Positions 7,816 through 55,925 of a stretch of DNA of 64,000 nt are shown here, in pieces. The stretch comes from Candidatus Levyibacteriota bacterium (GTDB taxonomy: Bacteria > Patescibacteriota > Microgenomatia > Levybacterales > UBA12049): positions 70,066 through 134,065 of the forward strand of contig JACROF010000012.1 in assembly GCA_016214555.1 (NCBI GenBank), given 5' to 3'. Below the pieces are notes generated by a model. The model searched no databases, was not told the origin of the DNA, and saw only the letters and a list, made by a program, of their open reading frames with translations. Position numbers and translations under genes: made by a program. The stretch's first letter is position 1; the number at the start of each line of letters is the position of its first letter.

Positions 7816-8275
7816 GTTCGACTTTACTTGATGTTGAATAGTTACTTATTCTTTCAATAACTTCAACAACTTTTGCTGTTGCGATAGCTGCTTGCCTTTT
7901 CTTGTGGAAAAGGTAAGGATCTCCTTTTGTAGTAGCGATTATAGCAGGTTTTATAGCTGTTACAAGATTATCATAATCTTGGTTGATAAATGGATAGGGT
8001 AAAAGAATGCATAGATCCGTAATCGATTTTTTCAAAAGGACACTTGCACTTTTTTTTTGATGTTGAATTGGTCTATTTATGCCCTTTTTGTCTTTTATTG
8101 CTTGATCAGACTCTAGTAATACTATAAGAAAATCTCCATATTTTTTTGCTTCTGAAATGAAAGCAAGATGTCCATCATGTAGGAGATCAAAACATCCGCC
8201 GATAAGAACAAGAGACTTGCTTTGAATTGAAGATAGGATTGCTAAAGCTTCTTTAGGAGGTACGGCCTTTTTCAT
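7808..8275 (-). CDS. cytidylyl/adenylyltransferase-like nucleotidyltransferase (RfaE domain II / TagD-like, HxGH motif)
   Basis: 155 aa. GGCFDLLHDGHLAFI contains the (T/C)FDxLHxGH nucleotidyltransferase motif. Confidence 0.65.
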   Translation of the reverse strand: MKKAVPPKEALAILSSIQSKSLVLIGGCFDLLHDGHLAFISEAKKYGDFLIVLLESDQAIKDKKGINRPIQHQKKSASVLLKKSITDLCILLPYPFINQDYDNLVTAIKPAIIATTKGDPYLFHKKRQAAIATAKVVEVIERISNYSTSSKVEHE

Positions 8276-8278
8276 TTA

Positions 8279-9709
8279 TTAAGTTTTTGTTCCTCTTAGA
8301 AAAATAGCTTGCCATGGTTTGTAGGTGGATGAAAATTTCTTTGAAAGTATTTCTTTGCCATTTTTTGTTACTGTATACATGAAATAAACATTTGCTCCAG
8401 GTGCTGAAAAATCGATCTGTTTTGTTTGTCCTACAGGAAGATTTGGATCATCTTGATAAAGTGGCTCAGGAGCTGGGGATTGAGAAAGAATGACGGGTTC
8501 TGATATTGAAGCTACTCTGCCATCTGATGTTCCATATAGCTCAAATGTCAATTGTAGGTTGTCGAGCTCGACATTTGTTTGAATAAGAATATAGTGTCCA
8601 GTATCATTTTTAAATTTTAGATCAACAGTTGGCGTATAGATTGCAGCATCAATTCCAGGTCCTGAATCTTCTTCGTAATAGTGAACTCGATAAGCGTGGG
8701 GATGTCTCTCCGTGATAGTCATTCCGGCATTTAGAAGGGCTCGAAAAAGTGTTGTAGACACTTGGCAGACCCCACCTCCATCTCCAAGCTCTGTTCTTCC
8801 GTTTTGAATAACATATGCTTGTTTGTACCCACTAAGTGAAGAAATATCACCCACCGCTTTGTTGAATGAAAATATTTCATCTGGTTTTATTAAGATGCCA
8901 TTAAGTCGTGAAGCAGCAAGTTGGATATTAAATATACGGTTTGGTATTGACCCCTGGAACAATGATGTCCCAATGCCAATTCTTTGAGTTATACCAAGAT
9001 CATTTGCTTCATTCGTTTCGACTTCAGGCTTGATAGTTCTCACTGGTATTTGTACTTTAACTATAGATCCATTTCGTAGGAGATTAGGAACAACATCTCT
9101 CTCCATTGCTGTCGTAATCTCAGACACATCTACAGACTTGCCTTCTCTTGAGGCTCTAAATTCAGATACCTTTCCGCCTTCGTAGGTAAATCTTGCATTG
9201 ATTGGATCTTGATCTATTTTGTCTTGGAAATCTTTAAGAGTTTTGGTGAAGACAACGCTAGAGTAGCGATATGCTGGAGTAAGGACAACCCCATGGAGGT
9301 ATGATTCAAGGCTTAAATAGATGTCAGAAAAAAAATTTCCGCTTCTTCCAATACTAAAGGCTTGAGATGAAAGTAGATTCTCATCGTAACCTATATCTAA
9401 ATCTTTTGCCGATACTGTAGCGGTTAATGTCGTGGTGCTAAATTCAAGGTATTTTTTACTGATGGAGTCGTTTTTATCTTTGAAAAACAATCTTACTTCA
9501 TCTTGGGATTTCCCACCAAGATCAACATTGTTGATAATGACTCCTGGATAAACTTTGTTTTTATACGTCTGTTTGTAATAGATATAGATAAAGCTGCTAA
9601 AAAAGAAAAAACCAATAAGTGCTCCAAAAGAAAACCAAAATACTGTTCGTAGAACAGCGAAAAGCTTCTTTTTTTTACGCAATAACAATAATGGATTGGG
9701 AATTAGCAT
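8279..9709 (-). CDS. VanW-family protein with N-terminal TM anchor
   Basis: 476 aa. N-terminal hydrophobic helix. GGGVCQVSTTLFRALLNAG matches the conserved VanW core motif. Confidence 0.75.
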   Translation of the reverse strand: MLIPNPLLLLRKKKKLFAVLRTVFWFSFGALIGFFFFSSFIYIYYKQTYKNKVYPGVIINNVDLGGKSQDEVRLFFKDKNDSISKKYLEFSTTTLTATVSAKDLDIGYDENLLSSQAFSIGRSGNFFSDIYLSLESYLHGVVLTPAYRYSSVVFTKTLKDFQDKIDQDPINARFTYEGGKVSEFRASREGKSVDVSEITTAMERDVVPNLLRNGSIVKVQIPVRTIKPEVETNEANDLGITQRIGIGTSLFQGSIPNRIFNIQLAASRLNGILIKPDEIFSFNKAVGDISSLSGYKQAYVIQNGRTELGDGGGVCQVSTTLFRALLNAGMTITERHPHAYRVHYYEEDSGPGIDAAIYTPTVDLKFKNDTGHYILIQTNVELDNLQLTFELYGTSDGRVASISEPVILSQSPAPEPLYQDDPNLPVGQTKQIDFSAPGANVYFMYTVTKNGKEILSKKFSSTYKPWQAIFLRGTKT

Positions 9710-13740: not shown

Positions 13741-15264
13741 ATGTTTTGGGCAGATAAAATTGCTAAAGAAATTATTGCGTCAGGAAAACACAAACCATAT
13801 TGGGTAGATGACATGAAGACACCCTCTGGAAGAGTTCATGTTGGTGCATTGCTAGGTGTTGTTATCCATGATCTAGTTTTTAGAGCATTAAAAGATACAG
13901 GCGCTGACGTCGTATATACGTATGTTTTTGAGAATCATGATCCTATGGATGATATACCTTCCTATCTCCCAAGAGAAAAATTTGAAAAATATTTAGGTAT
14001 GCCACTTTTTGCAATCCCTTCCCCTGTTGATGGGTACGAAAACTTTGCGCAGTATTATGCATTGGAATTTAAGCAAGCTTTTAATTCTATCGGTAGCCAT
14101 CCTAAAATTTTATGGACAAAAGATCTTTACACAAGCGGTAAAATGAATAAAAGTATCAAGCTTATTTTAGATAACGCATCAGAGGTCAGAAAAATTTATC
14201 AGGAGATGTACAAGAAGGAGATCGCTGATGACTGGTACCCATTCCAGGTGTTTTGTGAGACTTGTGGAAAGGTTTCAACTACTCGTGTCTATCATTGGGA
14301 CGGAGAAAATGTGCACTATACATGTACAGTAGATGCTGTAGCATGGACTAAAGGTTGTGGATACGAGGGGAAAACTTCTCCCTTTAGTGATGATAAGGGA
14401 ATGAAGGGTAAGATGCCATGGAAAGTAGAGTGGGCAGCAAAATGGCAAGCAATCGGGGTGACTGTTGAGGGAGCTGGAAAAGATCATATGAGCAGAGGGG
14501 GCTCTCATGATCTAGCAAGTCTTATTGCAGAGAGAGTGCTTAATTATCCTGTGCCTTATCCAGTTGGATATGAATTTATGCTTATCGGAGGGAAAAAAAT
14601 GTCATCCTCAAAAGGAAGAGGATTCGCTGCAGCAGATATCGTTACGATTCTTCCCCCAGAGCTTGTTCGTTTTCTGATTGTGAGAATGAATATTCGTCAA
14701 CAAACAAACTTTGATCCAAGTGATGGTGATACAGTACCGCGATTGTTTGATGACTATCAAGAATGCGCGCGCCATTACTTTGAAGATAAGACAGATGACG
14801 AAGCTCGTATCTTTGAGTTGTCACAAGTAGATGGTGTTAAAAAACCACCATCAATCCGTTTTTCTACTCTTGCTCAATGGGTTCAGATGCCCAACATGGA
14901 GTTTGCAATTAAAGATCAAGGACTTGAGGAGTGGGCGCAGTATGCGAGAATTTGGGTTGAGCGTTTTGCATCAGACTCAGAAAGATTTATCATACAAGAA
15001 AATACTCCGTCTGCAGCTAAAGATTTATCTGAGCAGCAAAAGAAGTTTCTTCATGCTGTTGTAGATCTTTTGCATACCACATCAGATGCTGAAAGTTTTC
15101 AGAAAGAAATATATCTAAAGGCAAAGGAGATGGATATTTCTTCAAAAGAGGCATTTAGCTCGATATATATTGCGCTTTTAGGTAAATCTTCAGGACCAAA
15201 GGCAGGGTGGCTTATTTTATCACTTGATAAAGAATTTGTTCAAAAGAGATTTAAGTCTTTATAA
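13741..15264 (+). CDS. lysS: lysyl-tRNA synthetase, class I (archaeal-type LysRS)
   Basis: 507 aa. Class I architecture with GRVHVGALLG (HIGH-like) and a KMSSSKG (KMSKS) motif, plus an internal CxxC...C metal-binding cluster (CETCGKV...HYTCTVD). This is not the class II LysRS. Confidence 0.85.
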   Translation: MFWADKIAKEIIASGKHKPYWVDDMKTPSGRVHVGALLGVVIHDLVFRALKDTGADVVYTYVFENHDPMDDIPSYLPREKFEKYLGMPLFAIPSPVDGYENFAQYYALEFKQAFNSIGSHPKILWTKDLYTSGKMNKSIKLILDNASEVRKIYQEMYKKEIADDWYPFQVFCETCGKVSTTRVYHWDGENVHYTCTVDAVAWTKGCGYEGKTSPFSDDKGMKGKMPWKVEWAAKWQAIGVTVEGAGKDHMSRGGSHDLASLIAERVLNYPVPYPVGYEFMLIGGKKMSSSKGRGFAAADIVTILPPELVRFLIVRMNIRQQTNFDPSDGDTVPRLFDDYQECARHYFEDKTDDEARIFELSQVDGVKKPPSIRFSTLAQWVQMPNMEFAIKDQGLEEWAQYARIWVERFASDSERFIIQENTPSAAKDLSEQQKKFLHAVVDLLHTTSDAESFQKEIYLKAKEMDISSKEAFSSIYIALLGKSSGPKAGWLILSLDKEFVQKRFKSL

Positions 15265-15315
15265 GATTGTCAGCTTGATTACTTCGTGTTATAGTATCAA
15301 TCTATTGTTTTGTAC

Positions 15316-16170
15316 ATGAAGCGAGCGCTATTTATTCTTATCCCATCTTTTGTTTTGGCTCTTGCTATGTTTCTTATTGTTCAGTCGGTTTTTTTCCACG
15401 GAAATGATAAAGGGGCATTACAGGTTACAGCATCTCCTCAAAGCAAAGTCTATCTAAGCGGTAAGTATCTTGGGCAAACACCTCTTTGTAAGTGTAACGC
15501 GAACGATATGCTAAAAATAGGTGAATACACTATAAAAATAGTGCCAATGAGTGGGAAAAGTAGTGAGTTCCAGGAAAAAATAAAGATTTCAAAATCCATT
15601 CTCACTGTTGTCGATCGAAAATTTGGTGAAAATGCTACCTCAGAGGGAAGTGTAATTACGCTCCAGCAGGCATCAGATGGTAAAAGAGAGCTTCTTGTTA
15701 CCTCAATACCTGATAAGGCAGAGGTTTTTCTCGATAATTCCTCATCAGGTTTTACTCCGCTTTTATTAAAAGATGTTACAGAATCAGACCATGAATTACT
15801 TTTAAAAAAAAGTGGTTACTCAGACAAGAAAATAAGAGTCAGGACGCCAAGTGGCTATAGACTTCTTGCAAGGATATATATGGGAATTCATATTGGTGAG
15901 TCGTTAGAATCTTTGGTTTCGCCTACACCAGTAAAAGTGTCCTCACCATCTGCTACACCTACACCACTTCTGCAGCAGATTATTATCCTCCAAACACCGA
16001 CGGGATATTTACGAGTTAGACAGAGTAATAGCGTTTCATCTTCCGAGGTGGGTCGTGTCTTGCCTGGGAAGGTATTTTCTATACTTTCAGAAAAAGAAGG
16101 ATGGTACCAAATATCACTAGATGATGGAATAAAAGGCTGGGTTAGCGGAGATTATGCAAAAAAACAATAA
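15316..16170 (+). CDS. membrane-anchored PEGA-domain / SH3b-domain protein
   Basis: N-terminal TM helix. PEGA-like segments (VTASPQSKVYLSGKYLGQTPL; TSIPDKAEVFLDNSSSGFTPL) and a C-terminal SH3b-like domain (GYLRVRQ...GWYQISLDDGIKGWVSGDY). ATG at 15316; the track's 15310 start is TTG. Confidence 0.6.
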   Translation: MKRALFILIPSFVLALAMFLIVQSVFFHGNDKGALQVTASPQSKVYLSGKYLGQTPLCKCNANDMLKIGEYTIKIVPMSGKSSEFQEKIKISKSILTVVDRKFGENATSEGSVITLQQASDGKRELLVTSIPDKAEVFLDNSSSGFTPLLLKDVTESDHELLLKKSGYSDKKIRVRTPSGYRLLARIYMGIHIGESLESLVSPTPVKVSSPSATPTPLLQQIIILQTPTGYLRVRQSNSVSSSEVGRVLPGKVFSILSEKEGWYQISLDDGIKGWVSGDYAKKQ

Positions 16171-17115
16171 CTAAGCATGGATAACGTAGATAATAACGAT
16201 GACTAGAAATGCCCAAAGCATTACTGTTGCCAAGAGAGGTTTGTCTGAAAGAAGAACTTTTTCAGGACTCTCTCCTTCGTGTTTTTCGTAGATATCTTGG
16301 AGATACCTCATTAATCCATAAACCACTGGAACAATTGTTATCATGAGCCATTTTCTTTGAAGAAATGCAGGCAAATAATCGGGAAAAAAAAGATCATTTG
16401 TTATAAGAGCCCTTCGCGAATTTTCTAAAAATGTAAAGTAAGAATATGAAATAAACGTTGACGTTGCAAAAATTGAAGCATAGACATCCAAAAGTCTTTC
16501 TGAGTAGTGAGAAAGAGTTTTTCTCATGGCAGCAATTTGACTACTAGGGCTTTGTGAAACAAGCGTAAGTTCTGACCTCCTTTTTCCAATAGCTAGAAAT
16601 AGCGAGAGTGAGATTGCAGTAAGCAACAACCATACAGAAATGTGATACGTTGTTAAAAATTCGCCTGCGTAGACGCGAAGGATGTATCCTCCAGCAAGGG
16701 CAAGAATATCAATAACAGCTATGTTCTTGAATATGGCAGAGTAGGAGATCTGAAGTATAAAGTACACAAGCGCAATGATAAAGAAGGCGGGGGAGATAAA
16801 ATAGCTGCTGACTATCGCTGTGGAAGCTAGGATAAGAGCTAATGCAACTGCGGATTGAACAGATATGTCTTTGTTTGCGAGAGGTCTGAATTTTTTAAAA
16901 GGATGAAGTCTATCTTTCTTAACATCGAAAATGTCATTGATTACATAGATTGATGATGAGAGACAACAGAAAATAATAAATCCAAATATAACTGTAGTAA
17001 GAATAGAGGGAATAAATAATTGTCCACCAAATGTTATCGCGGCGAATACTGCAAGGTTTTTAATCCATTGTCTTGGCCTAAGTAGTCTTAGATAATCACG
17101 AGCTATCTTTTTCAT
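16171..17115 (-). CDS. UbiA-family prenyltransferase (decaprenyl-phosphate phosphoribosyltransferase-like)
   Basis: 314 aa, 8-9 TM helices. NDIFDVKKD matches the NDxxDxxxD UbiA active-site motif. RPRQWIKN N-terminal motif is typical of DPPR synthase-like UbiA members. Confidence 0.8.
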   Translation of the reverse strand: MKKIARDYLRLLRPRQWIKNLAVFAAITFGGQLFIPSILTTVIFGFIIFCCLSSSIYVINDIFDVKKDRLHPFKKFRPLANKDISVQSAVALALILASTAIVSSYFISPAFFIIALVYFILQISYSAIFKNIAVIDILALAGGYILRVYAGEFLTTYHISVWLLLTAISLSLFLAIGKRRSELTLVSQSPSSQIAAMRKTLSHYSERLLDVYASIFATSTFISYSYFTFLENSRRALITNDLFFPDYLPAFLQRKWLMITIVPVVYGLMRYLQDIYEKHEGESPEKVLLSDKPLLATVMLWAFLVIVIIYVIHA

Positions 17116-18166
17116 GACTATATCTTACACTAAAGTGTAAGAAAAGTAATGCTCCTCCCACTATCGCAAGTAGGACTAGAAGAGCAAACGGCTTACTTTC
17201 ACTTTTTAACGTGAGTGCAATTGTGCCAACTATAGCAGAGAAGCACCAATAAAACAACGCAATCTGTCTTTGGCTATATCCAAATCTTAGTAAAATATGA
17301 TGAAGATGTTTGTTGTCATGGAGAAAAGGCGACTTCCCTGATAGTATTCTTCTTACAATAGTAAATATGGCGTCAATTATTGGAATCCCCATTACCAAAA
17401 TCGCAGTAGCAAATTTTGCGCTTGATAGAATAGACACCACTGCAAGTAGGAGATACATGCTGGTTGCTCCGTATCCTGGGAATATCTTGGCGGGTGAGAA
17501 ATTAAAAACTAAGAATCCAAGGGCTGCTCCTGCAATGATAAATGAGAGATTTGCGTCAATGAATACATAGTTGTCTACGAAAGGAAAACGAAGACTGAGG
17601 ATGCCAATAACTATTGCAGATATTGCCACGATTCCAGGCATCTGACCATCAATCCCCTTGCTCCAGTTAAGCATATTCATAACCCAAATTATCCAAATTC
17701 CCGCGATAATATCTCCAAGGGTTATGTGAAAAGGAAGAATGGGGATAGTAAGATGAAGAATTCCTCCAAGAGGATGGGTAATAAAGGGTATTGTTACACC
17801 ACTACCTACAACAATCGCTGCGCATAGAATGTTTACTCCAAATCGTAGATAAGGAGAAATGTCTCGCGACTTAGCGTTGTAGTAATCATCAAGCACGCCT
17901 ATGATAAGTGAAAGAAGGCTAGCTAAAAAGATTCCAATAGTCACTTTTGATACTGGGATAAAAAATATGCTAACTAAAAAAATACCTAAAAATAAAGGAA
18001 TCCCTCCGCTTCGAGGAATTATTTTTGTATGAATTATTCCTGGATGTTTGTGAAGCTTAGGGTCATCAACGAGGCCCAGTCGCCTAATAATAGGGATTGA
18101 GAAATACGTAATAATCGCTGTAATAAAGAAAGTTAAAGCAAATGGGAGCAATATGGTAAACGTCAT
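17096..18166 (-). CDS. glycosyltransferase family 4 polyprenyl-phosphate sugar-1-phosphate transferase (MraY/WecA family)
   Basis: 356 aa polytopic membrane protein. NMLNWSKGIDGQ matches NxxNxxDGxDGL of MraY/WecA. Cannot distinguish MraY from WecA from sequence alone; there is no dcw context. Confidence 0.8.
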   Translation of the reverse strand: MTFTILLPFALTFFITAIITYFSIPIIRRLGLVDDPKLHKHPGIIHTKIIPRSGGIPLFLGIFLVSIFFIPVSKVTIGIFLASLLSLIIGVLDDYYNAKSRDISPYLRFGVNILCAAIVVGSGVTIPFITHPLGGILHLTIPILPFHITLGDIIAGIWIIWVMNMLNWSKGIDGQMPGIVAISAIVIGILSLRFPFVDNYVFIDANLSFIIAGAALGFLVFNFSPAKIFPGYGATSMYLLLAVVSILSSAKFATAILVMGIPIIDAIFTIVRRILSGKSPFLHDNKHLHHILLRFGYSQRQIALFYWCFSAIVGTIALTLKSESKPFALLVLLAIVGGALLFLHFSVRYSHEKDSS

Positions 18167-18168
18167 AG

Positions 18169-18540
18169 TTATAAAATAAGCTGAATTGTCTTAAAGACAA
18201 AGATTGTAGTAAGGGTTGACATAAGGAGCGATGACAGGTTAAGCATTCGACCAAGCATCGCAGATCGTTCATAGATAACATGAGTCAATACAATATTTGT
18301 TATTAGATAAATAAAGCTGAATCCTACTGGAATAAGAATTCCAATTTTTGTTACCAATCTTTCTGTTCCCCATGGGAGCTGGTTGAAGATTGGTATAACA
18401 GGAGGAAGGAGTGAGTAGGTAAAGACAATAAACAAGATACTAAGAAATAAAAAAACCGTAGACAGAATTATAGACCACCAAATAGCTTTGTCTAATGAAA
18501 GTTTTTTAATGTAAGTTTTCATAAATATCAGCATTTCCAA
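18169..18540 (-). CDS. small polytopic membrane protein, unknown function
   Basis: 123 aa, 3 predicted TM helices, within the glycosyltransferase cluster. No recognisable motif. Confidence 0.4.
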   Translation of the reverse strand: MEMLIFMKTYIKKLSLDKAIWWSIILSTVFLFLSILFIVFTYSLLPPVIPIFNQLPWGTERLVTKIGILIPVGFSFIYLITNIVLTHVIYERSAMLGRMLNLSSLLMSTLTTIFVFKTIQLIL

Positions 18541-19987
18541 TCTTTAGAACGTGGTTGTAATTATACATAGTCTTAAGCGGTGATGGAACATCGCCGATGT
18601 TTATTATAAATCTTGGCTTCTTCTCATCAATTGCTTTTTGTAGTTGATCTTGGTATTCCTTATTGTTTTCTACATGATAGGCTACAGTGAATTTTGTTGG
18701 CGGAAGAGTTTTGGTAAGGTAGTAAATTTGAGCACTATTTCCCCAGATGAAAAGATCATTTTCTAAAATGTTTTTGGAAGTAAGATAACTAATGATACTT
18801 CGATCCCTAACGGTATTTTTATCAAAAAATGCTTCATATTCATTAACTGATTTTTTTTCAGTAACAAAGGTAATAAAGTTACCATAATAGTCTAAGGTCT
18901 TTTTTATGCTCCAATGCCTAAAATACATAAGAGTAATTACACCAATCAGTAAGAATAAAGCAATAAATTGAGCCTTTTTTGCTTTGTCAGCATAGAAGAT
19001 TGCCCCAACGAGAAGAGAAATACTTGGTAGGAGAACAAGAAGGTAGTGTGTGTAGGGTCGCTGTGAAAAAAAGCTGTTAAATATTGAAAATACTAACCAG
19101 AGCAAAATAAACAAGAGCGGTCGTTGAATTTTTTGCCGATTTAAGAATATGACTATTACTACAATGCCTAATAAAAATAATTTGCTGATTAAAAGTCCTT
19201 GAGGGACAATGAAGACATTGTTGTGTCCAACATATCCAACGGTACTTAGAAATATTGCGGACAAGTAGTCGGATAAAGCATTATTATGTAAAAAGAAAAG
19301 AACACTTATTGCAAAGGGGATTAGGAAGCTTGCAATAAAAGTTATTAAAGGTTTGCTGTATTTAGCGATGGATGTCCACATTTTTTTTATGGAAATATTT
19401 TCTGGAAATATCATAAATAGGATAAAGAGGAAAAACGCTGCAAAATCAAATATGCCTACTATTTTATAGAGGAATGAAATGCCAAGAACTAGTCCTGGGA
19501 GAATTAGTTTTTTAGAGTCAACAGATTTGTTTTTATAGACAAGAAAGCCGGATAAGATTGAAAAGGGAAGCATGAAATTTTCTGCATTTGCTATGTTTCC
19601 TTCAAGTATTGGCAGACCAAATAGGAGGGAAAAAAATGCAGTTGATATCAGTGCTGTATTCTTATGCGGAAATATTTTTCGTGATAAAAAGTAGAGGAAA
19701 AGCACTGAGAGCAAACCATATAAGGTCGACAATAGTCTTACGAGAAATTGATCACCATTGAATATTGCATATGTATAGTATAGGAGTGGTGGTTTGTTGT
19801 CCCAGATCTGTAAATACAATATGCGTCCTTTGTTGAGCGCAAAAGCAATTGCTTCATAGATTCCTTCATCACCATACCAATAAGGTTCAAAAAGCGAGGG
19901 GAGTCTCATGAGAAAAAAAAGAGACAAAATTCCAGTTAATATCCAAAATTGGAGAGATTTTTCCAATGAATGCATGTGTGCTCTCAT
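18506..19987 (-). CDS. GT-C fold glycosyltransferase (ArnT/PMT-like, GT39/GT83 family)
   Basis: 493 aa with >10 TM helices. First extracytoplasmic loop carries YWYGDEGIYEA...DNKPPL, matching the DE/DxD plus dKPPl signature of ArnT/PMT-type lipid-linked-sugar transferases. Confidence 0.75.
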   Translation of the reverse strand: MRAHMHSLEKSLQFWILTGILSLFFLMRLPSLFEPYWYGDEGIYEAIAFALNKGRILYLQIWDNKPPLLYYTYAIFNGDQFLVRLLSTLYGLLSVLFLYFLSRKIFPHKNTALISTAFFSLLFGLPILEGNIANAENFMLPFSILSGFLVYKNKSVDSKKLILPGLVLGISFLYKIVGIFDFAAFFLFILFMIFPENISIKKMWTSIAKYSKPLITFIASFLIPFAISVLFFLHNNALSDYLSAIFLSTVGYVGHNNVFIVPQGLLISKLFLLGIVVIVIFLNRQKIQRPLLFILLWLVFSIFNSFFSQRPYTHYLLVLLPSISLLVGAIFYADKAKKAQFIALFLLIGVITLMYFRHWSIKKTLDYYGNFITFVTEKKSVNEYEAFFDKNTVRDRSIISYLTSKNILENDLFIWGNSAQIYYLTKTLPPTKFTVAYHVENNKEYQDQLQKAIDEKKPRFIINIGDVPSPLKTMYNYNHVLKIGNADIYENLH

Positions 19988-21477
19988 GCCTTTTCCGTAA
20001 CTTTATACTCCATTCGTTTCCCAAGCATGAGTTGAGTATGTGAAATAAGAGCTGGAAGTGCTGACAGAAAAAATCCTACAATTGGCATAAGCAAAAATTC
20101 AAATGGAAAAAAAACTTTTCTTCGTAAAGGAAGCTTGACATTCTCCGGGCGATTCTTGTAGTCAATAAACATCAAAGCAAAAATTGCAAGAATTGTTGAT
20201 GTTAATATGAAGCCTGCAAGACTTGGGAGTTTGTAGCCAAGATTTGTTCTCGTAAATGCAGGATTGATAAATGGCATAATATTTGCAGCGATGGTGATGA
20301 TAAACCAATTTACAGGCCAGAGGAAGTGATCAAGCAAGACATGGTATATCATAACTGTTTTTCTTACAAATGGGACACCCGGTACCGTAAACCACCACTT
20401 AAGAAAGAGGGGATCATCAGATACTCCCCACGACCAGCGTCTTTCTTGATGGTATTTATTTTTTAAGCTATTGATGTATCCGTGAGAAAAAGCAGCATCC
20501 ATTGATGTTTTAAGAAAGATTGGATCAGTCCAAGCCTTGCCTTTTAGTTTAAAAAATGCTTTAAAGAATACTCGATAATCTTCAGGGATAACGTCAGTAT
20601 CCCACCAGCCGATATCTCTAAGCATTTTAATTGAAAGTGAGTAAGTAGATTGGGTAATAAGCCTATCATGCTGAACAAGCATAGATGTCCTCCATAGACT
20701 TCCGAAGAAAGAGAGAATGCGGATTGGAGCTGGAACTTGCCAGATATTATTGTAAAAGACTGTAGCAGACTGCCAGAATTTGTGATATCTATTTGGATCG
20801 GTAACAAATTTATAGGTCAAGTAGGCAAAAAACTGTCTGTCAAACATTGAATCTACATCAACTGAGGAAATTGTTGCAAAATCGACGTCAAGGTTTCCAT
20901 CCACAAAAAGTTTTTGATATGCTTCTTTTCCGGCAAAAGACTCGTTGGAGGATTTCCCTTTTATTTCTCCAGGTGCATCAATATGGTATGTTGCAAAAAG
21001 ACTGCCAAATTTCCCTTTAAATTCACTTATTACAGTCTGGGCTTTTTCTGGAGCTTCTTTCTCTCTTTCCTCCATTGCTAGCACAATATGGAGTCGGCTA
21101 AGCGGTAAGGTCTGTCTTGTAAGATTTTCAACGGTGGATTTCATTTTGGTAACACTTTCTTTATAGCTTGGGATAATGAGGACGTGATGAACCTTGTCGT
21201 AGTTTTCTTGACTACTTGCCATTTGCAGCCAGTTTTTTTTCTCTGCCTCTTTAATTTTCCGTGCTCCTCTATATGCATTGATCACCAAGGAATAAGATTT
21301 GTAAAACCAATACGTATCAAAAAATAGTATAAAATATGCCAAAAGCGTTGGTGCAAATAATGATCCCCAAATAGGAGAAAGAATAACTGTCCAAGAGGCG
21401 AGGCCAGGGAGTAATTCAAGGAATCTTTTTGTTTTGATAGGATAGCGCGTGAATACTTTATTGAAAAAGAGAGTCAT
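19984..21477 (-). CDS. processive family-2 glycosyltransferase (cellulose/chitin-synthase-like, QxxRW motif), membrane-embedded
   Basis: TM helices at both ends and a central cytoplasmic domain with DVDSMFD (DxD), IPEDY (TED-like) and QERRWSWG (QxxRW). Internal Met at 21477 chosen as start to avoid a 62-nt overlap with tatD; the track start is 21543. Confidence 0.7.
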   Translation of the reverse strand: MTLFFNKVFTRYPIKTKRFLELLPGLASWTVILSPIWGSLFAPTLLAYFILFFDTYWFYKSYSLVINAYRGARKIKEAEKKNWLQMASSQENYDKVHHVLIIPSYKESVTKMKSTVENLTRQTLPLSRLHIVLAMEEREKEAPEKAQTVISEFKGKFGSLFATYHIDAPGEIKGKSSNESFAGKEAYQKLFVDGNLDVDFATISSVDVDSMFDRQFFAYLTYKFVTDPNRYHKFWQSATVFYNNIWQVPAPIRILSFFGSLWRTSMLVQHDRLITQSTYSLSIKMLRDIGWWDTDVIPEDYRVFFKAFFKLKGKAWTDPIFLKTSMDAAFSHGYINSLKNKYHQERRWSWGVSDDPLFLKWWFTVPGVPFVRKTVMIYHVLLDHFLWPVNWFIITIAANIMPFINPAFTRTNLGYKLPSLAGFILTSTILAIFALMFIDYKNRPENVKLPLRRKVFFPFEFLLMPIVGFFLSALPALISHTQLMLGKRMEYKVTEKA

Positions 21478-21481
21478 ATTG

Positions 21482-22288
21482 TTAGGAAAGTTTATTAAAT
21501 ATAGTATAGACGTTTTGGGTTGTTTGTTCCACAATGCGATCATAAGAAACTTCTTTAACCCCGCTTAGGAATTTTCCTATTAAAATTACATATTCAGGGA
21601 GATTTCTTTCTCCTCTATGGGGAATAGGGGTTAAGTAGGGGCTGTCTGTCTCGACTACTATCCGGTCAAGAGGGGTAAGTTTTGCCAATTCTTTCAGTTC
21701 AACTGTTTCTTTTGGAGCTAACCCTGGATAAGTGATATTTCCGTCAAAACCTATAAAAAAACCAAGATTTAGTGCTTCTTTAAGCACTTCTTTTGTACCT
21801 GCGAAACAATGAAACATTCCTGGTACGGTTTGTAAAAGATGTTTTTTTTCTTTTAGTATCATTAGTATGTCCTCTCCTGCTAGACGATTATGAATTTGAA
21901 GAGGGAGTTTGAGCTTGTGTGCTAGCTCAATTTGAGTAATAAAAACTTCCTTTTGTATTTTTGGATCAACTATCCCGTTTGATTTATAGCTAAAATAATC
22001 AAGTCCTATTTCTCCAATGCCTATTACTTTACTTTGCTTTGCAATCATTTCAAGGTCATCAATCCAGTTATTGCCGAGTTCAATTTTATCGGCATGGTGA
22101 GGATGAATGCCAACAATTGCAAAAAGTTCAGAGTATTGTTTTGCAAGATCAACGGCCAGCTTACTTGAGTCGAGCTTTGTTCCTGTGTTGATAATTCTTG
22201 TTACGCCTTTTTCTAATGCACTTTTAATGACAGCGTCATAATCAGACGAAAAAGAATGAAAATTTAGATGACAGTGAACATCGATCAT
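21482..22288 (-). CDS. tatD: TatD-family metal-dependent deoxyribonuclease
   Basis: 268 aa. MIDVHCHLNF N-terminus and conserved His/Glu/Asp positions of the TatD TIM-barrel hydrolase. Confidence 0.85.
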   Translation of the reverse strand: MIDVHCHLNFHSFSSDYDAVIKSALEKGVTRIINTGTKLDSSKLAVDLAKQYSELFAIVGIHPHHADKIELGNNWIDDLEMIAKQSKVIGIGEIGLDYFSYKSNGIVDPKIQKEVFITQIELAHKLKLPLQIHNRLAGEDILMILKEKKHLLQTVPGMFHCFAGTKEVLKEALNLGFFIGFDGNITYPGLAPKETVELKELAKLTPLDRIVVETDSPYLTPIPHRGERNLPEYVILIGKFLSGVKEVSYDRIVEQTTQNVYTIFNKLS

Positions 22289-22293
22289 ATTTG

Positions 22294-23712
22294 TTAGACA
22301 ATTCTTGGGAAAAGAGGAGATTGACTCTTAATTTCACCTGAAAATTGTTTGAGAATATTTTTTGAGGTTATAGGAAGAAAGGGTTGAATAGAGAAGGAAA
22401 TCAGTCTAATTTTTTGAATTAAGTCTTTTATTACACTTACTGCTTCTTCCCTTGGTAGGTTCCAAGGTTTTTGTTCATTCAGCAATCTATCTGCTTTAGC
22501 AATTTCTTGCCATTGTGATTCAAGTGCATTATTGAATTGAAATTTCTCCGAAAAGTTAATTACGTCTGGGTCTATTGCTAAGGGTTGATCCTCAAAAATC
22601 AATTTATTGTTCTCGGCTAGCTTGGCAACGCGAGCAACAAGATTACCAAGTCCGTTTGCAAGATCTGAGTTATAAGCCTCAACGAGTTTCTCCTCAGAAA
22701 AGTCTCCGTCTTGGAAGGGAGATATTTTTGCAAGACAATAATAACGAAGCGCATCGGCACCATATTTTTTAATCATATCAAGAGGGTTAATAACATTGCC
22801 AAGCGTCTTGGACATTTTTTGCCCATTGACCGTAAAGTACTCATGGACGAAAAGTTTTTTAGGAAGTTTTAATCCCGCGGACTGGAGAATGGCTGGCCAG
22901 TATACAGCATGAAATCTGATAATCCCCTTCCCTACCACATGAAGATTAGCTGGCCACCATTTGCTATAGGTATCTTCATCATCTCCAAATCCTATTCCTG
23001 ATTGGTAAATATTGAGAGCGTCAAACCAGACATAAATTCGTTGCTCTGGATCACCTGGAACTGGCACACCCCAATTTTTTGCCCTTCTATTGCTTCGTGA
23101 AATACTAAAATCCTCAAGACCTGTTTTAATAAAAGAAGTGACCTCATTTTTTCGAAATTCAGGAACAACTTCGTAGGTATTCGATTCGATAAGCTCAAGA
23201 AGAAAGTCTTGATATTTAGAGAGTTTAAAAAAATAGTTCTCTTCTTCAACTTCTTCCAAGGACTTACCAGGATGCTCAAAGCATTCGCCATTTTCATCTA
23301 GATCACTGCTACTTTTGAATTCTTCACAGCCGACACAGTACAGGCCTTTATAAGATTTTTTATATATGTCACCATTTTTCTCGCAAAGTTCCCAGAGTTT
23401 TTGACTTGCCTTGTGATGGCTCTGATCACTTCCTTTTTGGAATATATCGAAATGAATATTTAATGCATCTGCAAGGTCCTGAAATTCTTTTGCATGTTCA
23501 TCAATAAAGCTTTGGATATCCATCCCTGCTTTTTCAGCAGCTTGAACATTTTTTATCGCATTCTCATCTGATCCACAAAGATAGAACACATCATTGCCAA
23601 GAAGTCTTTGGTAGCGATTGACAACGTCTGACTGGATAAATTCAAGCGCATGGCCAATATGTGGCTGTGCATTTACATAAGGGATGGAATTGGTAATGTA
23701 AAACTTACTCAT
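22294..23712 (-). CDS. metG: methionyl-tRNA synthetase (short form lacking C-terminal tRNA-binding domain)
   Basis: 472 aa. PYVNAQPHIGHALE (HIGH), KMSKTLGN (KMSKS), and zinc knuckle CVGCEEF...CFEHPG. Confidence 0.9.
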   Translation of the reverse strand: MSKFYITNSIPYVNAQPHIGHALEFIQSDVVNRYQRLLGNDVFYLCGSDENAIKNVQAAEKAGMDIQSFIDEHAKEFQDLADALNIHFDIFQKGSDQSHHKASQKLWELCEKNGDIYKKSYKGLYCVGCEEFKSSSDLDENGECFEHPGKSLEEVEEENYFFKLSKYQDFLLELIESNTYEVVPEFRKNEVTSFIKTGLEDFSISRSNRRAKNWGVPVPGDPEQRIYVWFDALNIYQSGIGFGDDEDTYSKWWPANLHVVGKGIIRFHAVYWPAILQSAGLKLPKKLFVHEYFTVNGQKMSKTLGNVINPLDMIKKYGADALRYYCLAKISPFQDGDFSEEKLVEAYNSDLANGLGNLVARVAKLAENNKLIFEDQPLAIDPDVINFSEKFQFNNALESQWQEIAKADRLLNEQKPWNLPREEAVSVIKDLIQKIRLISFSIQPFLPITSKNILKQFSGEIKSQSPLFPRIV

Positions 23713-28796: not shown

Positions 28797-29180
28797 ATGA
28801 AAATTGTCTCTGCTCGACAATGGATTCAAAAATTATCTTATTCGTTATTTTTTGTGGATGTTGCGTATGCTGCCGATCCAGCTTCCTCTTGTGATTCTTC
28901 AGCTGTTATGACACAGCTTGGGTGTCTACCGAAAGATCCTGTACTCTTTGTTAGTAGTTTTTATGGTATTGGACTGAGTATGGTTGGTGGAGTAGCTCTT
29001 CTCTTTATCATTATTGGAGGTTACACAATTCTTACTTCTCGAGGGAATCCAAGTCAAATTAACGCAGGAAAAAGTTATATTTTTTACTCGATTGCTGGCC
29101 TTATTCTTGCAATATTTGGCTATCTCTTTATAGAGATATTTTTGGTTGATCTTCTTCATATACCTGGTCTTGGACACTAA
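28797..29180 (+). CDS. small secreted two-TM protein, VirB2/TrbC pilin-like (hypothesis)
   Basis: 127 aa. Signal peptide ending AYA-ADP. Mature ~100 aa with two hydrophobic helices separated by a short polar loop (TSRGNPSQINAGKS). Size and topology resemble TrbC/VirB2 T-pilin subunits. Stop is 2 nt before the next gene. Confidence 0.5.
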   Translation: MKIVSARQWIQKLSYSLFFVDVAYAADPASSCDSSAVMTQLGCLPKDPVLFVSSFYGIGLSMVGGVALLFIIIGGYTILTSRGNPSQINAGKSYIFYSIAGLILAIFGYLFIEIFLVDLLHIPGLGH

Positions 29181-29181
29181 A

Positions 29182-32100
29182 ATGAAAAAATATTTTTTGT
29201 TCTGCCTTCTTTTTATCGTAGGACTTTTTTTATTTACCACCTCTCAGCAAGCGTATGCTGTTTCGATAGATAGCAAAACTCTTATTGCGGCAGATGCATT
29301 ACCCCAGGATGGATCGTGGATTATTGATCCTGAGGTGACTAGAATCGGCAAAAACGCATCACGATCAGGGCAGTTATTGGATTGGACACTCAAGGATTAC
29401 CAATGGTCAACTGCAGCATCGCAGCAAAGTAGCGATAATCCTCTTGCATCATTTTGGATCATTATTCAGAGAATTGTTTATGCCTTGTTTTTAGTTGTAA
29501 TTCTTATAACGTCATTTATTCTCATTGTAACTAGAGGGAAAAGTCTGTCTGCTAAAAGATTTCTTCCGAGGTTTTTACTCGCAGTAATTCTTGTGACTTT
29601 TTCTTTTTCACTTATTCAATTTATTTATCAATTTGTTGATATTTTACAAGGATTTTTTCTTAACAATTCTCGTGGGCAAATTATTTCATCAAAAGATCTT
29701 TTATTTATAGGCTTTCAGTACACAGACTTTGAAGGACTTCGTCGATTCGGTTCGTCATTTGACGAGTCTGCATTTATGTCGTTGATCCTTGTTAAATTTA
29801 CTGCATTTACTTATTATGTTATGGCTCTTCTCCTTATTTTTAGAAAGATTCTTCTTTGGTTTTTTATAGTTCTCTCTCCCCTTTTCCCAATACTGCTCTT
29901 GTTCTATCCAATGAGGAATACGGGAAAGGTTTGGATCGGTGAGTTTTTTAGATGGGTACTTTACGCACCTCTTTTTGCTATTTTCTTATCGGGCCTTGTA
30001 AGATTGTGGGATTCTCCTTCAGGACTTCCTCTCCTTTTTAATTTTACTGGAGTAAAGCAGGGGGATATGGTATATCCGACTGCGGTAAATATTTTACTTG
30101 GTGGACCTGGGCAAAAAATCGGATTGAACAATAGCGTTAATCTTCCTGATACATTTGCACTTTATGTAGTGTCTCTTATCATGTTGTGGGCAGTTATTAT
30201 TCTGCCATTTATTCTTCTCCAGATTTTTTTAGATCACATGATGGCGTATAATTATCAAAATAATCCTATAACAAAACAAATTACTAATCTTATGGCTTCA
30301 AGGCTTGCGCCGCCCTCAAAGCCACTTGGTCCTCCTCCATCTTCTAATCAACCAGCAGGTCTTGCAAGAAATATTCCCTTTGGTAGGCATTTTGAGGTTC
30401 CATCGTCTGTTGGTGATGCTAAGGAGATTCCAAGAAGTTTTGCACAGCAAAATAAGTCTCAGACAGTAGTGAAGAAAAATGTTGTTACAAAATCCGTAGT
30501 GAATAATCTAGCCAATCTTTCAATTCCAACGATGAGGGATATTGCCAGATATGAAATAGAGAAAAGATCTCATGACACTTCTCGAATTGCAGAAATTGAA
30601 AGAACGAAAAAAACTCTTATTCAGATAGCAAGTCCGACAACTCTTTCTATTTCTAGTGAGCGAGAAAGATATCAGGCTATCAGGGAAAGGTTAAGACTTG
30701 CTTCTCAGAAAGGTGATACTGTTGCCACAAATATACTCCAGGCTGCAAATACATATAATTACTATTCTTCGCAAGACACTTCTTCGACCACGATTAATCA
30801 AGGAGTTAAAAATCTTGCTAATCCAGAGAGAATCCTTTCTACAGTGGAAAAAGAAAAAGTCGAAAAAATAAAAGAGAGAATTATTCAGAATGCTCTTGAG
30901 GGTAACCCTATTGCTAAACAAGTTGCTGCAGGCCTAAGTCAGTTCTCCTCAAGCCAACTTGCAGTTCTCAAACAAATACTTCAGGCATTATCGTCATCAG
31001 CTCTAAATCAGAACTCTTCTAATCAATATGAGTCGCTTCGCGAGCGTCTCGTAACCGCAAGCAATTCTGGGAATACAGTTGCAACTACGTTTATTTCTAC
31101 AATTGAAAAGTCATCTTCTGAGCAAGATGTTAAGAGTTTATTTGAGGCGTTAATTAAAGCTGAAAAAGAAGGAAATCCAATAGCAAAAGAGGTTATGAGC
31201 TCTGTTGATAAAAATGTCTCACAGGTATCCACAGAGAATTTAAAGCAGGTGATTAAAGAAGCTAAAGATAAAAAAGATCCATTAGGGGTAATGATTTTTG
31301 AGATGATGCAAGAATCATCAGTCAAAGAACAAAAAGTTCCCGCCTCAGCGGCAACGAAATTAAAAAGCGGCACTTTTCCTGTTGTTAATAGGATTCAAGA
31401 AGTATCTTTTGATGATTACGAAGCTGTGAAGAAAATGTGGAGGGAAAATTATAAAAATTTGAAGTCTGCTGGATTTAATGGTGATAGTAGAAGAGATGAG
31501 ATCAATAATGATATTTCACATATGCAAGAAACGATTAGCTTACTTTCTTCAGGGAATCAAGAGATGATCGAACAAGGAATGAGACAGGTATCTGATATTC
31601 TGCCATTTCTATTAATTGGAGGATTCTCTCAGACTGAAATTATTACCTATCTTAAGGCAAAATTGGAGGCTGCAAAGTCTACACTTGAAGACTTAACAGC
31701 GAAAGACGATGAAGAAGACACGCTTCTTGCTGCTGAAAAAGCTGTTAAGCACACCTCAAAAACTATGACGATGAGTGCTGAGGCGCCTATTTCTGCAAAG
31801 CAGGTTATTCCTCAAGAGGTTTCAACGGGGTCTGTGCATACGACTCTACTGTCTCCTCCTTTGGCTAGTGGGGCAACATCAATTTTTAATATAGTCAACC
31901 TCCCAATAGTTACCTTGCGAGATATTGTAAGAATTGACCAGAAAAGAGAGACAACAACAGACCAGAAGAGTGAAATCACTATTCTTAAGCAAAATCTTCT
32001 CAATATTGGACATCCTGAGAGGGTAACTTCAGTAGACGAGCGTGAAAAATATAAAACATTGCACACTCAGCTGGTTGAGGAGGATAAGAAAGGAAATCCT

Positions 32101-35937: not shown

Positions 35938-36267
35938 ATGTCTGCCCTGTTTTTCTACCCATTTTACGTATTGAGATTTTGGTATGGTGAAGGTCCTGTT
36001 GTTGTACTCAAGCATTTCTATATTTTTAATCGTGTATTTCTTGATTTTTTTTCTGTAAAAATTCTTCTAAAAACCTTTTTTCTTCCTGTAAAAAATGAAT
36101 ATCGCGATGGTTTGGTCGGATTTTCCATTGGAATTGGGATTTTTATGAAAAGCTGTTTACTTATCATTGCAGCATTTTTATTTATGATACTTCTTGTTTT
36201 TGAAGTGGTGATTTTTGGAGGATATATGGCATTTCCTTTGATTACAGTAGGATTGTTGTTGTGGTAA
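35938..36267 (+). CDS. small polytopic membrane protein, unknown function
   Basis: 109 aa, 3 hydrophobic helices. Stop overlaps the start of the following membrane-anchored Clp-like gene, suggesting translational coupling. Confidence 0.4.
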   Translation: MSALFFYPFYVLRFWYGEGPVVVLKHFYIFNRVFLDFFSVKILLKTFFLPVKNEYRDGLVGFSIGIGIFMKSCLLIIAAFLFMILLVFEVVIFGGYMAFPLITVGLLLW

Positions 36268-36269
36268 TT

Positions 36270-55190: not shown

Positions 55191-55925
55191 TTATTCATCG
55201 TTTGGGTGAATTATTTTTGACTTAATAATGAGTCTTTTCCATGTCGTTCCTGGAGGAGTACACGTAACAAGAGTTAAATAATTATTATCATACTGTTGGT
55301 CAAAAAAAGAAGTATCAGTAGGAGTTGTGATTGTAAGATTGTAAATCTTATAATGATAGTCCATATTGTTTACTTTTATGATAATTTCGTCTCCAATCTC
55401 CAACGCATGAGCGTTGGCAAATATTGTTTTGTAATCTCCTTCTTTATAGAATTGAGGTAGAGTTGAGTGACCAAATATTACAGCAGTGCCTTTACTTGGA
55501 GGAACGGCGGTGCCCCCATACTGAACTAAGTGTGTTGATAGGTCATTATCAATGGTAGATACCATTGCGTTAACGATGTGAATTTTTGGAATTGAAATCG
55601 CATAACTGGTAACAGCTGCATCGGTATGTGATGTTTTAATAGAGGGGTACCAGTTTTGTGCGTTTGTGTAATCAATTCCTTTTATAGAATCTGTAGTAGC
55701 TTGAAGCAGAGATTGAAATGATGAGTCGGTTAAGATTGTGTATTTTGGAACAGGCGCTGCTATTTTTTGTGATGCAAAAACAGGCTGGAGATAAATTTGA
55801 AAAAGAATGAGAGGAATAGAAAAATAAATTGCAAATGCTAATCCGACTATACACAAAGTAAGCCCTACAAATCGTAGTAGTTTTCGCAGTAAAAGGGGAT
55901 TTTTTTTCCTATAAATTTTAGTCAT
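55191..55925 (-). CDS. sortase-family transpeptidase
   Basis: 244 aa. N-terminal TM anchor. Conserved His (AVIFGHSTLP), the LTLVTCTP active-site motif (TLxTC), and a downstream Arg. Confidence 0.7.
   Translation of the reverse strand: MTKIYRKKNPLLLRKLLRFVGLTLCIVGLAFAIYFSIPLILFQIYLQPVFASQKIAAPVPKYTILTDSSFQSLLQATTDSIKGIDYTNAQNWYPSIKTSHTDAAVTSYAISIPKIHIVNAMVSTIDNDLSTHLVQYGGTAVPPSKGTAVIFGHSTLPQFYKEGDYKTIFANAHALEIGDEIIIKVNNMDYHYKIYNLTITTPTDTSFFDQQYDNNYLTLVTCTPPGTTWKRLIIKSKIIHPNDE

Follow-up and report, generated by a model that had tools for sequence, protein, structure and literature searches.

On the minus strand of the 64-kb window analysed here (the window being the whole stretch of Levybacteria DNA under study), five same-strand genes for membrane enzymes span positions 16171-21477 (-), abutting or overlapping one another. 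They encode a glycosyltransferase of family 2 (GT2), a glycosyltransferase of the GT-C fold class (GT-C), a small membrane protein, a divergent transferase of the MraY/WecA superfamily (PNPT), and a protein of the UbiA superfamily. A first-pass annotation made from the sequence had described a four-gene pathway at this site; all the genes that it described are present, but they number five and not four. In the reading that we favour, albeit tentatively and at somewhat less than even likelihood, the block represents, in Levybacteria, a type of envelope-glycan operon that is conserved across the Microgenomates of the Candidate Phyla Radiation (CPR) and directs the synthesis of a lipid-primed, synthase-type polymer decorated with ribofuranose. 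The genes of the block and those that flank it are as follows (TM, transmembrane; OST, oligosaccharyltransferase; PPPRS, polyprenyl-phosphate 5-phosphoribosyltransferase; DPPR, decaprenyl-phosphoribose).

19984-21477, minus strand: GT2, membrane-integrated, of the cellulose/hyaluronan-synthase fold class, 497 amino acids
18506-19987, minus strand: GT-C, PMT_2 (ArnT/PMT/OST-like), 489-493 amino acids, assigned through Pfam and the AlphaFold2 fold
18169-18522, minus strand: small membrane protein, 117 amino acids, 3 predicted TM helices
17096-18166, minus strand: divergent PNPT (MraY/WecA superfamily), 356 amino acids, PF00953
16171-17115, minus strand: predicted UbiA-superfamily PPPRS (Rv3806c/DPPR-synthase family), 314 amino acids, PF01040 and NCBIfam
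21482-22288, minus strand: TatD
22294-23712, minus strand: MetRS, 472 amino acids, short, aligning only to positions 4-479 of the 648-residue MetRS model
15310-16170, plus strand: protein with PEGA and SH3_3 domains (PEGA/SH3), 286 amino acids, convergent to the UbiA gene
13741-15264, plus strand: class I LysRS

In the order of transcription, the genes for MetRS, TatD, GT2, GT-C, the small protein, PNPT, and UbiA are consecutive on the minus strand, separated by at most 5 nt or overlapping by 4, 17, and 20 nt. The start of the GT-C gene overlaps the stop of the GT2 gene (ATGA), and the start of the UbiA gene overlaps the PNPT stop by 20 nt. This tight spacing, together with the overlaps, points to one transcription unit with translational coupling. 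Two gene starts differ from those of the open reading frames (ORFs) as called. The GT2 ORF was called at 19984-21543; a second Met at 21477 gives the 497-residue protein found in nearly all of the 120 homologues listed and abolishes a 62-nt overlap with tatD. The ORF of the small protein was called at 18169-18540, and as the conserved start is Met7, the gene most likely covers 18169-18522. The additional small membrane protein that the first-pass annotation had placed in the block is confirmed as a 117-residue protein with three predicted TM helices.

The UbiA protein (PF01040, E 5e-21) consists wholly of its membrane domain in its 314 residues. On the NCBIfam models for DPPR synthase (DPPRS) it scored 218.1 bits with NF008978 (cutoff 207, passed) and 220.1 bits with NF008977 (cutoff 234, just missed), whereas heme O synthase, UbiA, and MenA-type models gave at most 35 bits and the next models outside the phosphoribosyltransferases at most 60 bits. 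Likewise, it matched the Rv3806c structure (PDB 8j8j) with E 7e-38 and 134 bits, compared with E 6e-8 and 36 bits for the archaeal AfUbiA, and so it groups with Rv3806c and not with the quinone/heme prenyltransferases. The DPPR-synthase-like NDxxDxxxD motif noticed at first pass is located at N60-D61-I-F-D64-V-K-K-D68, and N60, D61, D64, and D68 show no variation across 77 Levybacteria sequences. The ligand roles of Rv3806c residues for phosphoribosyl pyrophosphate (PRPP), Mg, and decaprenyl phosphate are known from its structure (PMC10994848): Asn73 and Asp77 are Mg/ribose ligands, Lys143 and Lys208 bind pyrophosphate, and the phosphoribose-specific residues Lys28, Tyr70, Gln135, and Tyr157 are not conserved in the UbiA superfamily (PMC10994848). 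K28, Y70, N73, D77, D81, Q135, Y138, K143, Y157, and K208 of Rv3806c are all kept in the window protein. By alignment, its K19, Y57, Q122, Y144, K130, and K199 correspond to K28, Y70, Q135, Y157, K143, and K208 of Rv3806c, respectively, and these six are invariant in the 77 Levybacteria sequences except for Q122 (68 Q, 9 H) and K199 (56 K). The scores on the hidden Markov models, the PDB match, and the kept PRPP-contact residues identify the UbiA protein, at the level of sequence, as a PPPRS of the Rv3806c family. A quinone or heme prenyltransferase was considered for this protein and rejected on the DPPRS-model scores and the phosphoribose-specific residues.

The gene upstream of UbiA had been labelled GT4, a name that refers to Pfam Glycos_transf_4 (the MraY/WecA PNPT superfamily) and not to the CAZy family GT4. 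Its assignment to the MraY/WecA type is borne out at the superfamily level by PF00953 (75.6 bits, cutoff 27, E 6e-21) with about 10 hydrophobic/TM segments, and a match at the equivalog level is lacking, as the protein remains below the cutoffs for MraY (TIGR00445, 43.8 versus 192 bits), WecA (TIGR02380, 96.8 versus 326), and archaeal MraY (66.7 versus 450). Since the MraY and WecA cutoffs are missed, the PNPT is no recognisable housekeeping MraY, an identity that the first-pass annotation had named among the findings that would speak against its proposal. Aligned to MraY 5jnq, to which it shows distant similarity (E 1.4e-4), the PNPT has Tyr232 in place of the Asp of MGDxGS and Lys170 in place of the first Asp of DGxDG, and it retains the D93-D94 pair, D173, and H287-L-H-H. 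We take the roles of these acidic residues, with the MGDxGS Asp as Mg site, to be those described for MraY, WecA, and GPT. Position 232 is Y in 73, F in 3, and W in 1 of 80 sequences and hence aromatic in all 77 that have a residue there. Both replacements are common to the PNPT orthologues of two genomes from other CPR lineages (L086, 12102-13190; L087, 12620-13717; 38-44% identity), and across these PNPT lineages the first Asp of DGxDG is replaced by Lys, Gly, or Ser. Judged by these residues, the operon PNPT is a distinct conserved subfamily with an altered metal or active site.

It could be argued that the PNPT is the MraY of peptidoglycan synthesis, that the UbiA protein is a quinone/heme prenyltransferase, and that their clustering is coincidental, as the region is otherwise a housekeeping one (MetRS, TatD, LysRS, MurB, and the dnaK operon) and the PNPT does resemble MraY 5jnq distantly. 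This explanation is effectively refuted by the MraY model score (43.8 versus 192 bits) and the Tyr at the MraY Mg-binding Asp, which together speak against a housekeeping MraY, by the 218-220 bits of the UbiA protein on DPPRS versus at most 35 bits elsewhere with the phosphoribose-specific residues kept, and by a five-gene order that is conserved in about 60 species.

The window GT2 has no Pfam match, even at relaxed thresholds, and no useful match to PDB sequences was obtained with either the single sequence or a profile (alignment A1). It is identified as a GT2 because its homologues carry PF13632, which many of them touch, and because the predicted fold agrees, with a GT-A domain packed on TM and interface helices as in processive membrane GT2 synthases. 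In the fold comparison, the polyprenyl-phosphate sugar synthases GtrB, ArnC, and DPMS reach just 12-13, with which Foldseek agrees. The motifs D207xD209, E299-D300, and Q344-E-R-R-W348, the last being the QxxRW seen at first pass, are invariant in alignment A1 and recur throughout the wider family, which comprises about 2,400 clusters (50% identity) and in which D, D, D, Q, and R do not vary; DxD, ED, and QxxR[W/H/Y] are found in 129/129 full-length representatives. The protein ends in an FxVTxK-like tail, Y491-K-V-T-E-K496 (window 19984-20004), that is invariant in Levybacteria, while the family-wide ending is GKxLEY-x-V-T-x-K. The strict FxVTxK-like motif occurs in 84 of the 129 representatives, and most others have aromatic-x-x-T-x-K. 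In BcsA and CesA, the FxVTxK motif of the gating loop touches UDP (PMC10592267). Processive synthases of the hyaluronan/chitin type have WGTR in this loop, and the TM channel of processive synthases has six or more helices. Unlike BcsA and the hyaluronan synthases, the window GT2 has no PilZ domain, carries its FxVTxK-like motif at the extreme C-terminus, lacks a sequence match to solved structures or a Pfam model, and has fewer TM helices, its short membrane domain comprising about four predicted ones. The synthase-like character of the GT2 is supported by modelled fold and motifs, and the enzyme may be processive; the cellulose/chitin-synthase likeness proposed at first pass thus holds at the level of fold and motif.

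The GT-C passed the Pfam cutoffs for PMT_2 (43.4 bits, cutoff 26.1, E 5e-11) and PMT (34.5 bits, cutoff 22.7, E 2e-8), and a search of PDB sequences returned nothing useful. Its AlphaFold2 model (predicted local distance difference test, pLDDT, 89; predicted template-modelling score 0.90) has a GT-C fold and a small C-terminal alpha/beta domain, and after TM1 it carries an invariant YGD36E37G. Foldseek matched the model to AglB, STT3, ArnT (5f15), DPY19, Pmt4, PglB, and AftA; among the arabinosyltransferases, AftA (8if8) came at rank 16 with E 1e-3 and EmbB had E 0.6, the OSTs, ArnT, and the PMTs matching better. Such fold matches of a model cannot tell either the donor or the acceptor. The small protein, for its part, matches nothing in Pfam (at relaxed thresholds too), NCBIfam, or, as a profile, the PDB sequences, and is not a recognisable GtrA, SMR, or GacJ; it has a conserved loop, LPPxIPIFNQLPWGxxRL (alignment A4).

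The GT-C could also serve protein O-glycosylation of the PMT/TfpW-like kind, in which it would modify secreted or surface proteins (pilins, S-layer-type proteins, or the PEGA/SH3 protein) with donors that include the PPPRS product, and no polysaccharide would be decorated. We consider this distinctly unlikely. The matches to both Pfam PMT and PMT_2, the PMT-like Asp-Glu pair after TM1, the presence of Pmt4, DPY19, and OSTs among the structural matches, and the exported PEGA/SH3 protein as a near-universal neighbour are in its favour, as is the proposal that a PPPRS homologue supplies arabinofuranose for pilin O-glycosylation in Pseudomonas aeruginosa (PMC11127046). However, it leaves the conserved synthase-like GT2 and the PNPT unexplained, the fold matches, which extend to ArnT and AftA, do not tell whether the acceptor is a protein, a glycan, or a lipid, and no other enzyme of the operon is as weakly conserved or as readily replaced as the GT-C.

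Scanning the species representatives of GTDB yielded 80 loci, mostly labelled Levybacteria or Patescibacteria, although many of the record titles are generic or evidently wrong. Counts for Levybacteria rest on the 61 loci of species representatives in which 6 kb or more of sequence follows the GT2 gene downstream. There, the small protein, PNPT, and UbiA were each found in 61/61 loci, the GT-C in 59/61, and the PEGA/SH3 protein in 60/61. The arrangement is therefore not due to chance, and the co-conservation of these genes in relatives, on which the first-pass proposal depended, is seen in a gene order shared by about 60 species genomes of Levybacteria. Relative to the window proteins, the GT2s are 62-83% identical, the UbiA proteins 61-84%, the PNPTs 56-74%, the GT-Cs 38-50%, and the small proteins 25-52%; for comparison, the flanking MetRS and LysRS reach 40-79% and 48-79%, respectively. 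The operon lies in the core genome beside genes for aminoacyl-tRNA synthetases and chaperones, and the conservation of its GT2 and PPPRS equals or exceeds that of these synthetases, which suggests that the product matters for viability or host attachment. In one Levybacteria genome (L003 9500-13300; L003 and L019 are one contig), roughly 4 kb of inserted sequence with small ORFs, including DUF433/DUF5615 toxin-antitoxin-like genes, parts the GT2 gene from those for GT-C, the small protein, PNPT, and UbiA.

Relatives beyond Levybacteria were collected in a metagenome scan with a single query protein (P0428), and counts were made on the 36 Gottesmanbacteria-like loci with enough flanking sequence. 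In one Gottesmanbacteria genome the order is MetRS, TatD, GT2, GT-C, small protein, and PNPT, then PEGA/SH3, with no UbiA. Over the 36 loci, a GT-C was found in 32, a PNPT in 29, UbiA in none (0/36), and the small protein in 20, the last being an undercount because of its fast divergence. Several of these loci are without a GT-C and consist of GT2, a gap of about 350 bp, PNPT, and PEGA. The full set including UbiA recurs in L087, another CPR genome, where the small protein is an uncalled ORF; in L086 the small protein is present as well, and PEGA/SH3 adjoins the operon in both. Outside the CPR, six contexts of GT2 homologues were seen, three of them in Chloroflexota/Chloroflexi: the gene lies beside or near a PMT_2 gene in two (L085 and L089) and is solo in four. 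The solo homologues from Chloroflexota (including L088, L170, and L171) are as expected of a self-sufficient synthase. When the window GT-C was compared by BLASTP with its counterparts in L085, L086, L087, and L089, none matched at E 1e-3.

The conserved evolutionary core is thus the GT2, the small protein, and the PNPT; the GT-C is a frequent yet replaceable partner of that core, and the PPPRS is a lineage-specific addition, seen in Levybacteria and in one further lineage or more. Feeding of the GT-C by the UbiA product, which the first-pass annotation had put at the centre, is plausible in Levybacteria but is not the organising principle of the operon, given UbiA in 0/36 loci, two Levybacteria operons without a GT-C, and GT-Cs that are mutually unrecognisable.

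On the other hand, the GT2, the small protein, and the GT-C are also the components expected of a three-component glycosylation system, as they are encoded together in the Gtr, CsbB-GtcA-YfhO, and GacI-J-K-L systems. The GT2 would then be a polyprenyl-phosphate hexose synthase of unusual fold, the 3-TM protein would be the flippase (the role of GtrA, GtcA, or GacJ), and the GT-C would pass this one sugar on, outside the membrane, to a polymer of the wall or to a protein. The PNPT and, in Levybacteria, the PPPRS would produce additional lipid-linked intermediates, destined for the same acceptor or for a different one. The GT2 and GT-C genes are indeed adjacent and translationally coupled (ATGA), an adjacency repeated in 32/36 Gottesmanbacteria-like loci and 2/6 non-CPR contexts (L085 and L089; these contexts are mostly named or likely Chloroflexota), the size (about 117 residues) and position of the small protein suit a GtrA-like partner, and the GT2 has just about four TM helices. 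Nevertheless, the GT2 keeps QxxRW and the FxVTxK-like motif that are typical of polymer synthases, the small protein matches neither GtrA, SMR, nor another family, and some operons have the GT2, small protein, and PNPT without a GT-C (L053, L063, L122, L123, L126, and L130), with Chloroflexota homologues often solo. We hold such a system to be an unlikely candidate.

The first-pass annotation had drawn an analogy to the mycobacterial pathway in which decaprenyl-phosphoribose is converted to the donor of GT-C arabinosyltransferases. Spelled out, the PPPRS product would be epimerised to lipid-linked arabinofuranose and used by an Emb/Aft-like GT-C to build an arabinan-type wall polymer on a WecA-primed linker. 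An enzyme of the Rv3806c family lies within two genes of a GT-C and beside a WecA-like PNPT, and the structures matched by the GT-C model include AftA (8if8). However, Pfam scans of the ORFs of the 64-kb window (at least 100 amino acids) brought up neither a 5'-phosphatase nor an epimerase of the DprE1/DprE2 type, and neither is a conserved neighbour within 10 kb at 83 related loci. A HAD or PAP2 gene was likewise not found in the scanned window ORFs or among the conserved neighbours of the 83 loci; the sole FAD_binding_4 protein among the scanned window ORFs is MurB. The missing partners include DprE1 (FAD/PCMH), DprE2 (a short-chain dehydrogenase/reductase, SDR), and an Rv3807c-like PAP2. 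TatD was considered as the absent phosphatase and rejected, as the metG-tatD pair is also kept in UbiA-less operons; pairing of these two genes is a general bacterial feature. With no linked epimerase, nothing points to arabinose. In addition, AftA stands only at rank 16 and EmbB at E 0.6, behind the OSTs, ArnT, and PMTs, the GT-C is present in operons that lack UbiA (0/36), and there is one GT-C rather than a battery of arabinosyltransferases. An arabinan pathway is hence very unlikely, and the arabinose part of the analogy is not supported, there being no linked epimerase or phosphatase and the UbiA being lineage-specific.

A comparison with the mycobacterial arabinogalactan/lipoarabinomannan pathway (WecA Rv1302, Rv3806c, Rv3807c, DprE1/DprE2, and the Aft/Emb GT-Cs) shows how far the resemblance goes. 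Shared are a WecA-like PNPT, an orthologue-grade Rv3806c enzyme in which each checked PRPP- or decaprenyl phosphate-contact residue is kept, and a GT-C together. The differences are the lack of a linked DprE1/E2 or PAP2 phosphatase, one small GT-C versus many large Emb/Aft enzymes, a membrane synthase-like GT2 as the polymerising enzyme versus the soluble GlfT1/2, and a host that is a monoderm-type CPR bacterium of about 37% GC.

Another parallel is offered by the O1/O2 system of Citrobacter youngae (Kelly et al. 2024, PMC11127046), which comprises ORF15 (PPPRS-PRP), ORF14 (a MATE flippase), and ORF12 (GT-C/GT136). The window PPPRS and GT-C correspond to the first and the last of these three components. 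PPPRS and GT-C systems are thus known elsewhere, so that a pathway of this kind is not as uncommon outside Actinobacteria as the first-pass annotation had supposed. As in Citrobacter, a PPPRS of the Rv3806c family is encoded close to a GT-C, ribofuranose is expected without an epimerase, and the donor is proposed here to arise from PRPP on the cytoplasmic side and to be consumed on the outer side of the membrane. Unlike in Citrobacter, the window PPPRS carries no HAD phosphatase domain fused to it, nor is a separate phosphatase linked; the operon contains no MATE or SMR/GtrA flippase, just the unclassified 3-TM protein, and the GT-C is assigned through Pfam PMT_2. Moreover, the genes form a core-genome operon with a synthase-like GT2 and a PNPT rather than an O-antigen locus, and PPPRS and GT-C are not strictly co-inherited.

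For the polymer itself, the Salmonella Borreze O:54 system (a WecA primer and the processive GT2 WbbF) offers a model, as it likewise combines a PNPT with a hyaluronan/cellulose-synthase-like GT2 and has no Wzx/Wzy or ABC exporter. It differs in that the PNPT here is without two canonical Asp residues, no adaptor glycosyltransferase equivalent to WbbE and no ligase are linked, and the GT2 has about four TM helices.

In the lipid-primed, ribofuranose-decorated polymer pathway that we favour, the PNPT would load a sugar-1-phosphate onto polyprenyl phosphate at the cytoplasmic face, yielding a lipid-PP-sugar primer. Drawing on a UDP-sugar, the GT2 would extend the primer, or else a free chain, and would itself move the product across the membrane, much as the WbbF synthase both elongates and translocates an undecaprenyl phosphate-linked O antigen (PMC2841628). 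A GT2 that acts as elongator and exporter would explain why the operon lacks Wzx/Wzy or an ABC exporter. The 3-TM protein may be an accessory subunit that possibly completes the four-helix membrane domain of the GT2, or it may act as a lipid-sugar flippase. In Levybacteria, the PPPRS would join PRPP and polyprenyl phosphate to polyprenyl-P-ribose-5-P, which an unlinked phosphatase would trim to polyprenyl-P-ribofuranose, and this would then be flipped outward. At the outer face, the GT-C would move the sugar from the polyprenyl-P donor to the polymer or to a wall or surface protein; in Levybacteria this sugar would most likely be a pentofuranose, and ribofuranose is the default because no epimerase is seen. 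In the known system, PPPRS, flippase, and GT-C add side-chain pentofuranoses, again with ribofuranose as the default in the absence of an epimerase (PMC11127046). The PEGA/SH3 protein may bind the product.

Several observations weigh against this model. The gene set, product families, catalytic-residue conservation, and synteny of the operon were computed, and from these we infer the substrates, products, acceptor, and every biochemical step. No phosphatase, recognised flippase, epimerase, exporter, or LCP-type ligase was found among the conserved neighbours at the 83 loci. The FxVTxK-like motif of the GT2 lies after the last TM helix, in a segment of pLDDT 27, and not between interface helix 3 and a TM helix as in BcsA. 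The two replaced Asp residues of the PNPT count against the priming step, and this protein may not be a normal priming enzyme. Furthermore, two Levybacteria operons keep UbiA and have no in-operon GT-C: L063 has none within 10 kb, and in L053 a different PMT_2 protein of 430 residues (7921-9213), 30% identical to the operon GT-C of the Gottesmanbacteria type, is encoded just upstream of tatD. Because UbiA and GT-C are not strictly co-inherited, a different donor may supply the GT-C, and the product of the PPPRS may go to a GT-C whose gene lies outside the operon.

No paper that turned up in literature searches dealt with this cluster or with a PPPRS of CPR bacteria. Automated annotation already labels the GT2 "glycosyltransferase family 2" and the GT-C "glycosyltransferase family 39", and both PPPRS and GT-C systems and synthase-dependent pathways are already known. 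New are this combination, as a core-genome operon conserved across a CPR lineage, and also three of its parts: a PNPT subfamily that is atypical, a GT2 subfamily whose C-terminus forms an FxVTxK-like tail, and a 3-TM partner that is unclassified. A bolder reading, which we offer as speculative and rather doubtful, is that GT2, 3-TM protein, and altered PNPT together constitute a near-essential apparatus, not described before, with which the Microgenomates make a lipid-primed polymer of the wall or surface, and that the PPPRS was grafted onto it in Levybacteria for ribofuranosylation. The 3-TM protein would then complete the half-channel of the GT2, and the changes in the PNPT would reflect a donor or metal site that departs from the usual one. 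If true, CPR bacteria would have their first defined pathway for an envelope glycopolymer. The CPR (Patescibacteria) make up a large share of bacterial diversity, and as they are nearly all uncultured, hardly anything is known of the chemistry of their envelopes. The operon predicts a chemical signature, namely lipid-linked and polymer-bound ribofuranose, and it supplies targets for heterologous expression: the PPPRS (assayable as for Citrobacter and Mycobacterium), the small synthase-like GT2, and the atypical PNPT. It also shows that enzymes of the Rv3806c type, which are tuberculosis drug targets, have been recruited modularly onto unrelated glycan machines.

Downstream of the operon, the end of the PEGA/SH3 gene (16170) directly meets the UbiA stop, with zero intergenic distance. 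The encoded protein (PEGA, E 1.5e-12; SH3_3, E 5e-13) has one N-terminal hydrophobic segment; N-terminally anchored or secreted, it may be a tentative partner of the operon, for example one that binds the wall or the polymer. No tRNA or Rfam element was detected in the window, a promoter scan gave background level only, and terminator-like sites exceed those in shuffled controls, none of them being taken to mark an operon boundary. The GC content of the window is about 37%, and the neighbours of the operon are housekeeping genes of a kind typical of Patescibacteria/CPR (MurB, class I LysRS, short MetRS, TatD, hrcA-grpE-dnaK-dnaJ, ClpB, NusA, IF-2, PNPase, RNase J, FtsK, AlaRS, and RpoB). The window GT2 shows 100% identity to a protein whose NCBI label is "MAG: Candidatus Levybacteria bacterium". 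The class I LysRS and short MetRS fit a CPR origin.

Elsewhere in the window, a thymidine/AMP-phosphorylase-family gene (Glycos_trans_3N, Glycos_transf_3, and PYNP_C) lies at 53781-55055 (-); it may belong to the nucleoside-salvage route known from CPR bacteria, which bears on the supply of ribose-phosphate and PRPP. At 55191-58227 (-), a sortase gene overlaps the end of a gene for a 769-residue protein with a Baseplate_J-like segment (E 3.5e-9), an unusual pair for a core-genome region. At 28797-33150 (+), a 127-residue protein resembling type IV secretion system pilins (PF18895, E 2e-5, just under the Pfam cutoff) is followed by an overlapping ORF of 1334 residues without a Pfam match. Finally, two ClpB-like AAA+ genes stand in tandem at 33194-35866 and 36261-38669 (+) with an ORF of 109 residues between them, the second having a weak first AAA module.

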